Shown: piece after piece, positions 53,708-58,168 of the stretch
Layout: each line of letters starts with the position of its first letter
How positions within the stretch are numbered: position 1 is the stretch's first letter
NCBI GenBank assembly: GCA_018027755.1
Contig: GCA_018027755.1_4098.1
Origin: a phage
Direction: 5' to 3' (one strand)
DNA: 64,000 bases
Program-made: the position numbers and the translations under genes
Notes under the pieces: model-generated
Seen by the model: the letters and a program-made list of their open reading frames with translations, nothing else
The model's database searches: none
Told to the model about the DNA's origin: nothing

Positions 53708-54229
53708 ATGTCGAAGAAGGATGCTTCGAAAAAACATTCAGTACATTTCAGTACTGGAAAGGACAACTGGACAACTCCCAAAGATTTCTTTGAAGATTTG
53801 GATGAGTTATGGGGATTTACACTTGATGCTGCTTGTGTTGATGAGACTGCATTATGTGAGAATTATTTTACACCAAATGATGATTCTCTTTCACAGGATT
53901 GGGGAAAGAATATAGTTTGGTTGAACCCTCCATATAGTGATTTGAAAACATGGTTATCTAAAGCAGTAGATGCGTATAATAAAGGGGCAACTGTATTAAT
54001 TCTTGTACCATCAAGAACGGATACTATAGCCTTTCAGGATTATGCTGCGAAAGTTTGTGATTGTATTTGTTTTATTAAGGGAAGGTTACGATTTGGTATC
54101 CCAGAAGAACCAGAGAAGAAAACAGATTCAGCACCATTTCCTTCGTGTCTGATAGTACTGGATAAGTACTTAACCACTGCTAAAATCAATTATCTTAAAT
54201 CTCTTGGATTGGTGATGAAGAATTTATGA
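53708..54229 (+). CDS. dam: phage Dam-like DNA N6-adenine methyltransferase
   Basis: NWTTPKDFFEDLDELWGFTLDAACVD and LNPPYS motif; SD AAAGGAA. Confidence 0.85.
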   Translation: MSKKDASKKHSVHFSTGKDNWTTPKDFFEDLDELWGFTLDAACVDETALCENYFTPNDDSLSQDWGKNIVWLNPPYSDLKTWLSKAVDAYNKGATVLILVPSRTDTIAFQDYAAKVCDCICFIKGRLRFGIPEEPEKKTDSAPFPSCLIVLDKYLTTAKINYLKSLGLVMKNL

Positions 54230-55011
54230 CAAAATACATTGATATCAACACAGTTTCTATGATAGGAAAACCACCAAATGCTCTACACCCACGTGTTTAT
54301 GCTAGTAGAATAAATGATAAACTAAAAGCACCTAAGCTATCAAATATTAAATTTAATGGCTTTGTTGGTGAATGGAATGGACACGGAACTTATTGTGAAA
54401 TGGAATGTTCTGAACATGGGACATGGAAATGTACAATTGGTAATTTTACACATCAAACAGTCGGTTGTCCTGTATGTGTTGGCTGCAAAAAACATACCAA
54501 AGAATCAATAAGTGAAAATGTAAAATCAATTATCGCAAATGATTCAGAAAGAAATATGTATACATTTCATGGCATACATAAATTTTCTGGTAAAGATTCA
54601 ATACTATCATTGGAATGCCCAACACATGGTATATGGAACACTACCAGTTATAATAATTTCAAAGTTCATGGCTATGGTTGTCCAGAATGCTCAACCTATA
54701 ATTTAAAGCATGATGTTAAATCTGATGATGAGCTTTATTTTTATATCCTGAAAGCTGAAGACCATTTCAAATTAGGTGTTTCTAAAGATATCACTCGCAG
54801 AAAATATGATATTGAAAATACTTCCAAACAAAAGTATGAGTTATATCTTCATGAATATATTGGATATACTAATGAAATTGAAAAGTATATAAAAAGTATG
54901 GGTTATCATACATTCTTTACAAAAGAAGAATATGGTAGTGGATACACCGAAACTGTTGGGATTGATAAGCTGGATGAAGTTGTGAGAATTGTAAGAGAGT
55001 ACCTTAAATGA
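54226..55011 (+). CDS. Cys-repeat protein with GIY-YIG-like (T5orf172-type) C-terminal domain; possible endonuclease
   Basis: repeated CxxC zinc-ribbon-like units; C-terminal YFYILK...KLGVSKDITRR...GSGYTET. Confidence 0.4.
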   Translation: MTKYIDINTVSMIGKPPNALHPRVYASRINDKLKAPKLSNIKFNGFVGEWNGHGTYCEMECSEHGTWKCTIGNFTHQTVGCPVCVGCKKHTKESISENVKSIIANDSERNMYTFHGIHKFSGKDSILSLECPTHGIWNTTSYNNFKVHGYGCPECSTYNLKHDVKSDDELYFYILKAEDHFKLGVSKDITRRKYDIENTSKQKYELYLHEYIGYTNEIEKYIKSMGYHTFFTKEEYGSGYTETVGIDKLDEVVRIVREYLK

Positions 55012-55541
55012 AAGAAACATGTATACTATCATTCATGAGATGTAACCCAATACATAATGGACATGGGTTTGTATTCAACAGTGCATTGGAATTGAAAGAA
55101 CAGTACAATGCTGATTTAAAAATATATCTAAGCACCAGTACTGACAATATAAAAAACCCACTCCCACCTGAACTAAAAATGTATTATACAGAGGGATTCT
55201 ATCCTTCAGTGCAAGAGAACATCTACACAGAAGACAATCTATTTGATATAATGAGAGAACTGGATGGAAAGTACTTAGATGTTCTTTTCATTTGTGGTTC
55301 TGACCGTATTGATTCTTTTCAAAAAACTCTTGACATGTACAATGGTAAGTTGTATAATTTTTGTAGTATAAAAGCAATTCAGGCAGGTATTGACCGTAAT
55401 GTAAGTCAATATAGCTCAACACAAATGCGTAACTTCGCAAAAAATGAAGATTTTGATAGTTTTCGTGAGTTTTTACCTGGAAATGACGAGGACTTAAAAA
55501 TACAATTATTTGAAGACGTTATAAAATACATGAGGAAATAA
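55008..55541 (+). CDS. NMN-adenylyltransferase-like nucleotidyltransferase
   Basis: N-terminal FMRCNPIHNGH matches the nucleotidyltransferase H-x-G-H motif; C-terminal SSTQMR; ATGA overlap. Confidence 0.55.
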   Translation: MKETCILSFMRCNPIHNGHGFVFNSALELKEQYNADLKIYLSTSTDNIKNPLPPELKMYYTEGFYPSVQENIYTEDNLFDIMRELDGKYLDVLFICGSDRIDSFQKTLDMYNGKLYNFCSIKAIQAGIDRNVSQYSSTQMRNFAKNEDFDSFREFLPGNDEDLKIQLFEDVIKYMRK

Positions 55542-55837: not shown

Positions 55838-56117
55838 TGAAATAAATCTTACAGGATATTTTTTACAAGAATCAATGATTAAATTTAGTGATAAATTTTC
55901 AGTACTGGATGGTATCGAAATGTGGCATGTCAAACCACTGTTCCACACTTTCAGTAAAGAGCACAAAATGTTATTGACTGAAGCCAGTAAATCAAATAAC
56001 ATATGTGAAATCAAAATTGGTGTAAATGTCTATAAAGGGATGGTTATCTTTTTTGACAATAACAGCAACTACTTTTATATTGTTAAGGAGCATTACGTTG
56101 ACAAATACAAATACTAA
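55830..56117 (+). CDS. hypothetical protein (95 aa)
   Basis: first ATG in frame (track TTG at 55818). Confidence 0.5.
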   Translation: MCDEINLTGYFLQESMIKFSDKFSVLDGIEMWHVKPLFHTFSKEHKMLLTEASKSNNICEIKIGVNVYKGMVIFFDNNSNYFYIVKEHYVDKYKY

Positions 56118-56712
56118 TACATATTTCCGTTATCTTCGCTTAGGTCTTTCCCTACGTCCGATCCGTGGAAAGTGCGATTCACTCGCTGACCTTGACTATG
56201 CATATGCATTACATCATGAAGGTGTACAGTATGTATTGGGTGATTATGGTGAATTTGAAGAAACAAATGACAGTACTGGAATTAATGCTGGTGTAGAAAA
56301 TCTTAACAACATTGCTAACAGTTCTCGCCATGACATTGTGTTACAGATTCAAAACTTTATTGAGCAGCACACAGGTAAACGTGTTTGGTGCTATGTCGGT
56401 ACTGATGCACAAATGTCAATTTCATTCGGTAACGATGAAGGATATGTTGCACAGCTTATTATGGATTTTGAATCTGAAGAGAAGTTTTTAGAATTCAAAG
56501 AAAAGATTATTCAGTCACTTGTTGATATGGGTATCCCCGAAGATAAAATGCCAGAAGTTCAAAACATTGATGAATTTGTTTTGATTCCATCTGATGAGAA
56601 ATATGATGCAATGTTTACTGCCCTTAATATTCCAGGAGTTATTGTGGAGTACTTTGATGATGGTGATGATAGTATCTATATCGATCTAGATGACGATGAC
56701 GACGATGAATAA
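56026..56712 (+). CDS. hypothetical protein with poly-Asp C-terminal tail
   Basis: track ORF; ends DLDDDDDDE; start uncertain (possible TTG at 56098 after AAGGAG). Confidence 0.5.
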   Translation: MSIKGWLSFLTITATTFILLRSITLTNTNTNTYFRYLRLGLSLRPIRGKCDSLADLDYAYALHHEGVQYVLGDYGEFEETNDSTGINAGVENLNNIANSSRHDIVLQIQNFIEQHTGKRVWCYVGTDAQMSISFGNDEGYVAQLIMDFESEEKFLEFKEKIIQSLVDMGIPEDKMPEVQNIDEFVLIPSDEKYDAMFTALNIPGVIVEYFDDGDDSIYIDLDDDDDDE

Positions 56713-56719
56713 TGTACAT

Positions 56720-56746
56720 AGCCCGACATAAGTTCGGGCTATTTTT
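56720..56746 (+). terminator. rho-independent terminator
   Basis: stem AGCCCGA/TCGGGCT then T-run. Confidence 0.75.
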
Positions 56747-56758
56747 GTAAGGGGATAT

Positions 56759-57034
56759 ATGAATTATAAAGTTCTACAATATACATACAGTGTTTTGTTT
56801 GATTTACATCACAATGGAAGATATCTCAATACAATACGAGAAAACACATTCACTCATACTATCTGGATTAATCACTTAATAATGATACGTGAATATTTTG
56901 TTAATAGTGAGATAATCATTCGTGGTAAAAAACAGAAGATAGAACAAGTTAATAGTTTTGGTGGTAAATTAGTACTATCATTTATAGATAGTAATACTAA
57001 TGAAAGATATAGTATAGATTTGGTGGACATATGA
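56759..57034 (+). CDS. Fam-D paralog 1
   Basis: N-terminus MNYKVLQYTYSVLFDL; SD AAGGGGA. Confidence 0.6.
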   Translation: MNYKVLQYTYSVLFDLHHNGRYLNTIRENTFTHTIWINHLIMIREYFVNSEIIIRGKKQKIEQVNSFGGKLVLSFIDSNTNERYSIDLVDI

Positions 57035-57297
57035 ATTATAAAGATTTCCTACTAACATACAAGATTATTCGAGATTTAGCACACGACAATGATAGCCCTA
57101 GTCTAGAAGACACATGCACTGAAATGATTCATACAATTCGTGGTAAGATTAAAAAAAAATTCAGTACTGTTATTATTGGTGATGACCATGCAGAATTTTC
57201 TGATATAATCATTAGACGTGATGGTAAAGTTGAGGTTCAGTACTACACTGATTTTGGATTTACCAGTATTCCGTTGGAGATATTCCCTTGGGATTAA
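57031..57297 (+). CDS. Fam-D paralog 2
   Basis: N-terminus MNYKDFLLTYKIIRDL; ATGA overlap. Confidence 0.6.
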   Translation: MNYKDFLLTYKIIRDLAHDNDSPSLEDTCTEMIHTIRGKIKKKFSTVIIGDDHAEFSDIIIRRDGKVEVQYYTDFGFTSIPLEIFPWD

Positions 57298-57599
57298 ATT
57301 TAAATGATATACAATTCACTTATAAGATCCTATATGATTTGTATGATGTATACCTTGTTAGTAACAAAATAGGTTCACATAACCCATACAAAGAACAACC
57401 ATTTATTGATTTATATATTGAGTACTTAGATTCAGTAGGTGAATATATAAAAAAGAATTACAGTACTTTTATCGACGGAAATGATATATTCGAGTTCTCT
57501 GGAGTTAAATCATACAATGGGATTATCCATGTTGAATTTCTTGAAATAACCGATAGGGGATTTATCGAGATTAAAGTTGTGAAGTTGGTGAATTTATAA
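57288..57599 (+). CDS. Fam-D paralog 3
   Basis: LNDIQFTYKILYDL; non-ATG (TTG) start, uncertain. Confidence 0.5.
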   Translation: MGLNLNDIQFTYKILYDLYDVYLVSNKIGSHNPYKEQPFIDLYIEYLDSVGEYIKKNYSTFIDGNDIFEFSGVKSYNGIIHVEFLEITDRGFIEIKVVKLVNL

Positions 57600-57609
57600 G
57601 AGGTTACAT

Positions 57610-57921
57610 ATGTTATTAAATGATATACAATTCACATACAAATTTTTGTATATCCAATACGCTACGGTTGATGCTGGAGAATATCTCTACGGTGAAATCT
57701 ATCGTTCGGTATGGATAAAGTTTTTGGATGAATTACATGAATATTACCATGATTTGTGTATAGTTCGTGATAATAAAATATACAAATTCCGCGATATTGT
57801 TAGTCATAGCGGTAAGCTACGATTGGAATTAAGTACTGATAGTGATGTTGATTGGATTGGTGTAAATTTACTGGAGTTGGAGAATGAAAAACAACTTAAA
57901 GGAAATACAAGTATTTTATAA
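57610..57921 (+). CDS. Fam-D paralog 4
   Basis: LNDIQFTYKFLYIQ; SD AAGAGG. Confidence 0.65.
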   Translation: MLLNDIQFTYKFLYIQYATVDAGEYLYGEIYRSVWIKFLDELHEYYHDLCIVRDNKIYKFRDIVSHSGKLRLELSTDSDVDWIGVNLLELENEKQLKGNTSIL

Positions 57922-58168
57922 ATTCTTATACTTGTCATATGTAAAAGATGAGTACTATGAAAGTGTGTATTATTTTTTATGGCAACATTACCGTACTATA
58001 GTAAGAGATTTATATATAGGAAAATCTATCATATCCAATGGTGAAAAATGTATATGTACTGATGTTGTTAGTTTTAATGGTTCTTTAACACTGTGTTTCA
58101 GATGCGATAATAATAATGGGTCATTTTCATTAAACGTATATCAGTTAGAAGGAATAAATTTTGAATAA
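57884..58168 (+). CDS. Fam-D paralog 5
   Basis: LKEIQVFYKFLYLS; overlaps upstream gene. Confidence 0.55.
   Translation: MKNNLKEIQVFYKFLYLSYVKDEYYESVYYFLWQHYRTIVRDLYIGKSIISNGEKCICTDVVSFNGSLTLCFRCDNNNGSFSLNVYQLEGINFE

Follow-up and report, generated by a model that had tools for sequence, protein, structure and literature searches.

Phage pathways that rebuild nicotinamide adenine dinucleotide (NAD+) are among the described systems with which the gene examined here was compared. NARP1 and NARP2 are two of them, the latter defined as Nampt together with a nicotinamide mononucleotide (NMN) adenylyltransferase, or NMNAT (10.1101/2024.02.11.579819), and NARP3 consists of PnuC and a NadR-like enzyme (PMC13464706). 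We analyzed a gene at 55008..55541 on the plus strand of a 64,000-nucleotide stretch of phage DNA (GenBank assembly GCA_018027755.1, contig GCA_018027755.1_4098.1), the whole of which is referred to as the window. An earlier note, made from the letters of this DNA, had taken the product for an NMNAT-type enzyme and had proposed that it might belong to a split or novel NAD-salvage pathway directed against NAD-depleting defenses; its premise that phage NAD+ reconstitution is a known route is borne out by the three pathways above. Our results indicate that the gene almost certainly encodes a compact, single-domain nucleotidyltransferase with a HIGH signature, a member of the Rossmann-like 'cytidylyltransferase-like' superfamily. 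For its acceptor, NMN or nicotinic acid mononucleotide (NaMN) is the best single candidate; we assign this a probability of roughly 0.35. The counter-defense reading is not supported.

Judging from nucleotide identity, the window is from an Asteriusvirus jumbo coliphage of the 121Q/PBECO4 group. A megablast search with a 5-kb probe found ECO103 4-12-1 to be 98.6% identical over 100% of its length and both 121Q and phAPEC6 to be 98.8% identical over 83%; the window corresponds to approximately 141.7-202.5 kb of 121Q. The transferase gene is an ATG-to-stop open reading frame (ORF) of 177 amino acids. Its ATG shares the sequence ATGA with the stop codon of the ORF before it, and a GAGAG lies 9-13 nt upstream. 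The translation, MKETCILSFMRCNPIHNGHG...YSSTQMR..., contains the H-x-G-H and SSTQMR elements exactly as the earlier note described them. The first, H16-N-G-H19, is encoded at 55053..55064 (+) and reads as the (H/T)xGH motif that binds the phosphates of a nucleoside triphosphate (NTP). K49-N-P-L52 (55152..55163, +) forms the 'KNPL' loop after strand 2 and is 89-97% conserved, and S136-S-T-Q-M-R141 (55413..55430, +) is the SxTxxR motif of the C-terminal helix. The predicted NTP-binding motifs, (H/T)xGH, R11, KNPL and SxTxxR, are all shown to be present. G97-S-D-R100 (55296..55307, +) is a family-specific 'GSDR' at the end of strand 4, and Y111-N112 lie on the helix next after that strand. A perfect match to the sigma-70 consensus (TTGACA, 17 nt, TATAAT; 12/12) is found at 55330..55358 (+) inside the coding sequence, where it covers the codons of the conserved LDMYNGKLYNF segment. 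It may serve the small genes downstream as an internal promoter or simply reflect codon choice; overall, the region has no more promoter-like sites than shuffled sequence.

The protein matches PHROG 3041, 'cytidyltransferase', over residues 2-176 with an E value of 3.9e-54. The same family is the cyanophage cluster T4-GC190, and orthologues are annotated in 121Q, GAP32 and Syn1; that of 121Q is gp418, labeled 'cytidyltransferase' and situated directly after a Dam methyltransferase. Homologues were detected by tblastn in 549 phage records, 368 of them from Synechococcus phages, and one is present in the PA5oct-like phage Cassandra (genus Wroclawvirus). When a profile was searched against a database of 1.84 billion representatives clustered at 50% identity, it retrieved 3,644 clusters at E<=1e-3, nearly all viral; a word-indexed protein search with the single transferase returned close relatives only. 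By these matches the transferase is a member of a large virus-restricted family. Conservation was computed over 255 members with the close relatives of the window excluded. Near-invariant positions are R11, P14, G18 (97%), H19 (99%), S42, N50-P51-L52, K57, G97 (99%), D99 (98%), R100 (99%), Y111 (98%), N112 (98%), G127, R130, S136 (99%), R141 (100%) and F152. Position 16 is mostly T (86%) and less often H (9%); the clade of the window has His. The half of the protein that carries 'GSDR...YNG', together with R130, is specific to the PHROG 3041-type family. Since the PHROG match, the tblastn records, the profile clusters and the near-invariant motif columns all concur, the gene is real and conserved, far beyond a chance ORF. 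Because public records already carry an annotation for it, the gene as such is no novelty. Cyanophage papers treat it as an auxiliary metabolic gene with a function that 'remains unclear' and guess at a glycerol-3-phosphate cytidylyltransferase (PMC9146016; PMC7238727). A literature search on cyanophages combined with the gene label 'cytitidyltransferase', and another on DUF6267, a domain considered below, found nothing, and the papers on JP4, fEgEco12, Sharanji and phAPEC6 treat neither the transferase gene nor NAD metabolism.

The structure of the protein was predicted with AlphaFold. A first model built on 10 close sequences had a predicted local distance difference test score (pLDDT) of 81 and gave unstable structure rankings; with an alignment of 39 sequences the pLDDT rose to 96.7, with a predicted template modeling score of 0.90. 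The folds nearest to the latter model are NMNATs, with phosphopantetheine adenylyltransferase (PPAT) a close second. Class I aminoacyl-tRNA synthetases, FAD synthetase, glycerol-3-phosphate cytidylyltransferase (GCT), CCT and ATP sulfurylase appear lower in the ranking. The modeled fold is that of a HIGH nucleotidyltransferase, a Rossmann-like alpha/beta arrangement as in NMNAT, PPAT, GCT and class I aminoacyl-tRNA synthetases. The Pfam family PF01467 (CTP_transf_like) gave the window protein a score of 13.3 bits (E 0.099), below the gathering threshold of 21; it was matched by 30 of the 39 diverse relatives at E<0.01, and by three long relatives, tested separately, above the cut-off at 28-32 bits. 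Long metagenomic relatives (P0043, P0049, P0131 and P0272) range from 338 amino acids, in a possibly truncated sequence, to 1,224; their N-terminal portion is the transferase domain, after which come very basic linkers, then DUF5824 and a P-loop kinase. This kinase, in relatives of which many have 500-1,200 amino acids, is most like adenylate kinase (AK1, E 8.8e-6), and dephospho-CoA kinase was not among its matches.

The NadD model TIGR00482 scored 18.3 bits against a cut-off of 112.45 and matched residues 13-29 only; no match at E<=10 was obtained between the window protein and PRK01153, TIGR01527 or PRK05379, which represent NadM and archaeal NMNATs, or the CoaD model TIGR01510. Among the 39 relatives, weak NCBIfam matches were to NadD in 19, NadR in 11, archaeal NMNAT in 9 (the best at 8.9e-8), CoaD in 6 and RibF in about 5, all far under the curated cut-offs. 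The NMNAT models are therefore the commonest weak subfamily matches across the family. The comparison with cytidylyltransferase-like and NMNAT profiles that the earlier note had suggested as a check thus came out below threshold for PF01467 and TIGR00482 alike. Its assignment stands as far as a HIGH nucleotidyltransferase with a leaning toward NMNAT models; membership of a curated NMNAT family does not.

A likeness to an NMNAT also came from hhalign. Against a profile of six phage NadM sequences, the family gave a probability of 96% and an E value of 1.7e-9 over its first 61 columns only (NadM columns 4-66). This ATP-binding stretch runs from strand 1 through the HxGH helix and strand 2 to the KNP loop, and the two share GRxxP-x-(H/T)xGH and KNP(L/F). 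The loop is KNPF in NadM and KNPM in Helicobacter pylori PPAT, and the 'KNPL' of the transferase aligns to both. The position before the NTP motif is Arg in 98% of members, which gives 'GRxNP' as in NadM, where PPAT has 'GTFDP'. In the window protein, R11, P14, H16, G18 and H19 of the NadM turn G-R-F-Q-P-x-H-x-G-H are present; G10 is replaced by Met, and the Gln corresponds to N13.

When the family profile was compared with PDB sequences, H. pylori PPAT came first (E 9e-6) in a full-length alignment that places the SxTxxR motif on the PPAT 'ISSSIVR'; the NaMN adenylyltransferase of Staphylococcus aureus (1.8e-4) and an archaeal NMNAT (4e-3, N-terminal part only) followed. PDB searches with the single transferase sequence or a shallow alignment gave nothing useful. 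The hhalign comparison with the single H. pylori PPAT sequence reached a probability of 92% over 134 columns, and the family consensus TxGH is that of PPAT. These results could mean that the enzyme is a CoaD-like PPAT that makes dephospho-CoA. However, the PPAT motifs G-T-F-D-P-x-T-x-G-H and R-G-L-R are absent, the family having GRxNP and GSDR at those places ('RGLR' lies opposite GSDR in the HMMER alignment). Only the T of TxGH agrees with the family, and there the window protein itself differs, with His. The CoaD model was matched weakly by just 6 of the 39 members and not by the window protein, no CoA-pathway gene was seen as a neighbor or fusion partner, and the fused kinase matches adenylate kinases. 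We know of no reason why phages would need a PPAT. Taken together, we regard this identity as very unlikely.

We looked for partners of NAD synthesis in the genome. The window contains no visible phosphoribosyltransferase, as had been noted before, and this holds beyond it: tblastn with the GAP32 Nampt and NadM-Nudix proteins against the complete 121Q genome, taken as a close relative for the rest of the genome, and against the window gave a best E of only 0.096, and in OR844650.1, the closest record, neither protein was found across the 47-kb syntenic stretch. The same search recovered the 121Q Sir2 and Nudix neighbors at E 1e-65 and 1e-101. The 121Q annotation names no NadR-, PnuC-, Adps-, Namat- or phosphoribosyl pyrophosphate synthetase-like gene; this is from inspection of the annotation, with no sequence search for NadR or PnuC. 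The genome does have its own NAD- and ADP-ribose-handling enzymes, although it lacks NAD synthesis genes. A Sir2-family protein (gp476) is followed directly by a Nudt16-like Nudix (gp477) about 25 kb downstream, outside the window, and a macro-domain protein, gp544, is encoded elsewhere in 121Q. The DNA ligase of 121Q is ATP-dependent (PF01068).

Related jumbo phages differ in this respect. GAP32 has a canonical NARP2, made up of NadM-Nudix (GAP32_112) and Nampt (GAP32_114), and the Nampt and NadM-Nudix pair is carried by CBB, RaK2, K64-1, Munch and EJP2 as well; the CBB paper counts NMNAT-like genes and Nampt in the CBB lineage (PMC5259590). In GAP32, CBB, RaK2 and EJP2 the NARP2 site lies between an Ig-domain structural gene and Sir2. 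The syntenic position in 121Q (gp473-gp475) is occupied by ClpP- and HslV-like protease genes instead. Sir2 and the Nudt16-like Nudix are retained in both 121Q and the NARP2-bearing relatives. GAP32 also encodes an orthologue of the transferase, GAP32_069, again beside Dam.

The idea that the transferase is the NMNAT half of a split or novel pathway that restores NAD+ against NAD-depleting defenses draws on its NMNAT-like fold, on the established NARP1, NARP2 and NARP3, and on the presence of NARP2 in related jumbo phages. Several results argue against it. Nampt and NadM were not detected in 121Q by tblastn, no Adps-, Namat-, NadR- or PnuC-like gene is annotated there, and protease genes stand at the syntenic NARP2 site. 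An NMNAT alone cannot use nicotinamide and ADP-ribose, the products of the defense enzymes. In the NARP2-positive relatives the transferase gene is an extra, its recurrent partners are DUF6267 and Dam, and cyanophages, which carry it, were outside the top ten host groups in the Nampt search. Neither NARP2 nor NARP3 fits the context of the transferase gene, and of the readings discussed in this report we give this one the least credence.

The neighborhood of the gene falls into two patterns. A gene for a Dam-type DNA N6-adenine methyltransferase is located at 53708..54229 (+) in the window (PF05869, E 7.5e-32), and Dam is directly upstream of the transferase gene in 121Q, GAP32 and the metagenomic contig L017. 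Among Rak2-like jumbo phages, Dam is the upstream neighbor that is conserved. The T4-GC190 gene of T4-like cyanophages and of marine myophage contigs lies within the replication module uvsX - gp41 - mazG ... gp61 - nrdA, immediately after DUF6267 (T4-GC71, PHROG 455) and often with a 4-bp overlap. DUF6267 is immediately upstream in Syn1, P-HM2, syn9, P-SSM3 and marine contigs, and was likewise found in 368 Synechococcus-phage records, the same number as the transferase. The S-PM2 protein p142 is a fusion: its first part, residues 13-200, matches the C-terminal half of DUF6267 (E 3e-32), and its second, residues 208-381, the transferase (E 7e-48). PHROG 455 covers both domains, and the window protein matches its C-terminal part. 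DUF6267 loci are at Syn1_160 (L003 3793..4989), S-PM2 p141/p142 (L021 2492..4271) and L018 4760..6004. DUF6267 was not found in 121Q (best E 0.12), GAP32 or Cassandra by tblastn and by hidden Markov model searches of six-frame ORFs.

The invariant segments of DUF6267 are KxDG, QGD, PNT..Y, EG(Y/F)V and KxVxR, which, judged by eye, resemble ligase motifs I, III, IIIa, IV and V. Searches of the PDB with phmmer and hmmsearch, using three queries, gave no significant match to a solved protein or ligase, and hhalign comparisons with Rnl1-like ligases and ATP-dependent DNA ligases, as sequences and as alignments, gave none either; the sole DUF6267-ligase alignment, at E 0.057, put the proposed motifs IV-V on motifs IV-V of Rnl1. 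A word-indexed search with DUF6267 returned near-identical cyanophage proteins only. The gp30-type ligase is present in 2,628 phage records, and Synechococcus phages are outside the top ten host groups among them. An unlikely explanation of these observations is that DUF6267 and the transferase constitute an unrecognized two-enzyme module of T4-like marine phages. If so, DUF6267 could be the 'missing' ligase of cyanomyoviruses, and the transferase could make or regenerate its nucleotide cofactor. In one version, an NAD-dependent ligase would be supplied with NAD+ made from NMN and ATP, and the fusions to an adenylate-kinase-like domain would recycle AMP; the stand-alone copy of the 121Q type could then be a remnant that recycles NMN from the NAD-dependent ligase of the host.

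How these data bear on the acceptor can now be considered. In favor of NMN or NaMN we count, besides the motifs, the PHROG 3041 and PF01467 matches and the confident AlphaFold model, the hhalign match to NadM, the weak NMNAT model matches and the names given by JGI pipelines, which call several family members NMN or NaMN adenylyltransferases. We also count the use of NAD by 121Q, seen in its Sir2, Nudt16-like Nudix and macro-domain genes, and the response of the host to the related phage PA5oct, in which the operon pncA-pncB1-nadE is the one most strongly induced (PMC7318152). This induction is circumstantial evidence of NAD turnover in infections by this phage group.

A number of observations weigh on the other side. 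The window protein is under every curated cut-off, be it for NMNAT, PPAT or Pfam, and the invariant NadM residues D87, Y90, W95 and F131-P-Q-W134 have no aligned counterpart in the transferase family. The part of the domain after strand 3 binds NMN in NMNAT structures; in the region that corresponds to it in NadM, no conserved Trp is found in the 255 members. The GSDR motif has no equivalent in the aligned region of NadM, and the additional invariant basic residues K57, R100 and R130 hint at a more anionic acceptor. The window allele has Met for the near-invariant Gly10. GAP32, CBB, RaK2 and EJP2 keep the transferase gene besides NadM-Nudix and Nampt, which suggests that it has a non-redundant activity and is not simply their NMNAT. 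The cyanomyoviruses, the main home of the family, pair it with DUF6267 and not with NAD genes. Finally, the literature regards the function of the cyanophage members as one that 'remains unclear' (PMC9146016).

Alternatively, the enzyme could serve a different acceptor in a module of nucleic-acid or nucleotide metabolism, with DUF6267 as a partner in cyanomyoviruses. A nucleotide or another phosphorylated compound of strongly anionic character could be the acceptor, or a ligase-like partner could depend on the enzyme for the supply or regeneration of its cofactor. The adjacency of DUF6267 in cyanophages, the equal record counts, the p142 fusion and the span of PHROG 455 speak for it, as do the fusion of long relatives to DUF5824 and an adenylate-kinase-like kinase, the family-specific acceptor-side half with its invariant GSDR, YNG, R130 and K57, and coexistence with a canonical NMNAT in GAP32 and RaK2. 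However, no such acceptor can be named, the partnership with DUF6267 does not extend to 121Q and is thus not universal, DUF6267 itself has no significant match to a solved protein or ligase, and the nearest folds remain NMNATs. We rank this alternative as equally likely as NMN/NaMN.

With NMN or NaMN as the acceptor, the proposed reaction is as follows. A nucleotidyl group, most likely AMP from ATP, would be joined to the phosphate of the small phosphorylated acceptor with release of pyrophosphate, adenylyl transfer being suggested by likeness to the structural neighbors. The product would be NAD+ from NMN or nicotinic acid adenine dinucleotide from NaMN. Because the genome lacks Nampt and NadM and has no annotated NadR or PnuC, the transferase would work without a phage partner and would use host-made NMN or NaMN, NMN possibly coming from the NAD-dependent ligase and NaMN from PncA and PncB. 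Its role would be a recycling or boosting step tied to nucleic-acid metabolism, as opposed to rebuilding of the NARP2 type.

The window gene itself is a mosaic. Its 33 nucleotide differences from 121Q gp418 all fall in codons 1-32, codons 33-177 being identical, and its 5' tract (55008..55103, +) comes from another allele class, 'SFMRCNP'. Two of the changes, Gly10 to Met and Ile12 to Cys, fall in the nucleotide-binding turn. An ORF of 261 amino acids (54226..55011, +), homing-endonuclease-like, with CapR and DUF723 zinc-ribbon domains and a match to PHROG 681 'endonuclease', sits exactly between the Dam and transferase genes with an ATGA overlap on both sides. ECO103 4-12-1 and EC22.5-2 have this ORF, whereas 121Q, phAPEC6 and PBECO4 lack it. 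Its product resembles a free-standing homing endonuclease and is not part of the enzyme. The divergent tract abuts this ORF, a pattern that suggests insertion of the endonuclease gene with co-conversion of the flank. The 'SFMRCNP' 5' allele occurs in PBECO4-type phages without the endonuclease gene as well.

This substitution raises the question of whether the window allele is impaired or inactive. Position 10 is G in 95% of the 255 members and M in under 1%, and M10 and C12 were both brought in by the divergent tract beside the insertion. Nevertheless, several sequence clusters, PBECO4-type phages included, retain the allele with its ORF intact (P0002, which has 43 member sequences, P0003, P0006 and P0019), and for this reason Met10 is probably tolerated. 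The other catalytic positions are all intact, and AlphaFold folds the region confidently. Impairment or loss of activity through Met10 seems to us quite unlikely.

Two features further downstream complete the picture of the locus. A terminator-like hairpin at 56718..56742 (+), with a 9-bp stem, 5 GC pairs and a following T-run, lies just after the ORF 56026..56712 and probably ends the transcription unit from Dam to gp421. Five tandem small ORFs of 88-103 amino acids follow at 56759..58168 (+); they have a common N-terminal start resembling 'IQFTYK.LY' and appear to be a local paralogue family.

For the window, these results are mostly a correction: the gene encodes an orphan enzyme that was already annotated and is not evidence of a new counter-defense pathway. 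The family is large, with about 3,600 clusters, 368 Synechococcus-phage records and members across the Rak2-like jumbo phages. Should NMN or NaMN prove to be the acceptor, a minimal NAD-making step that needs no Nampt would be present in many abundant marine phages; with any other acceptor, an 'auxiliary metabolic gene' that is common in phages would have borne a wrong label for about 20 years. The pairing of DUF6267 with the transferase offers a testable handle on two core genes of cyanomyoviruses.

We finally compare the transferase with the systems that it most resembles. It has an NMNAT-like fold in common with NARP2 as found in KVP40, GAP32 and RaK2, and its phage lineage has close NARP2-bearing relatives; however, the 121Q genome is without Nampt, and the transferase is a single domain of 177 amino acids rather than a bifunctional NadM-Nudix. 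With NadM (Francisella 2qjt, Methanocaldococcus jannaschii MJ0541 1f9a, GAP32_112 and the NatV type of KVP40) it shares the R-x-x-P-x-(H/T)-x-G-H turn, the KNP(L/F) loop and SxTxxR, although identity is only 13-17% and the remaining two thirds are unaligned. It differs from NadM-Nudix in having no Nudix domain and in scoring below all NMNAT cut-offs, and true NadM coexists with the transferase gene in sister phages. CoaD/PPAT (H. pylori 3otw and Escherichia coli 1b6t) is like it in size and compact architecture, is the best hidden Markov model match, and agrees in the family-typical TxGH and the ISSxxxR-like motif; the transferase family differs from it in the Arg of 'GRxNP', in having GSDR opposite RGLR and in lacking a CoA-pathway context. 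Within PHROG 3041/T4-GC190, the Rak2-like members stand alone and follow Dam instead of DUF6267, and the window allele is set apart from most of the family by His in place of Thr at position 16 and Met in place of Gly at position 10.

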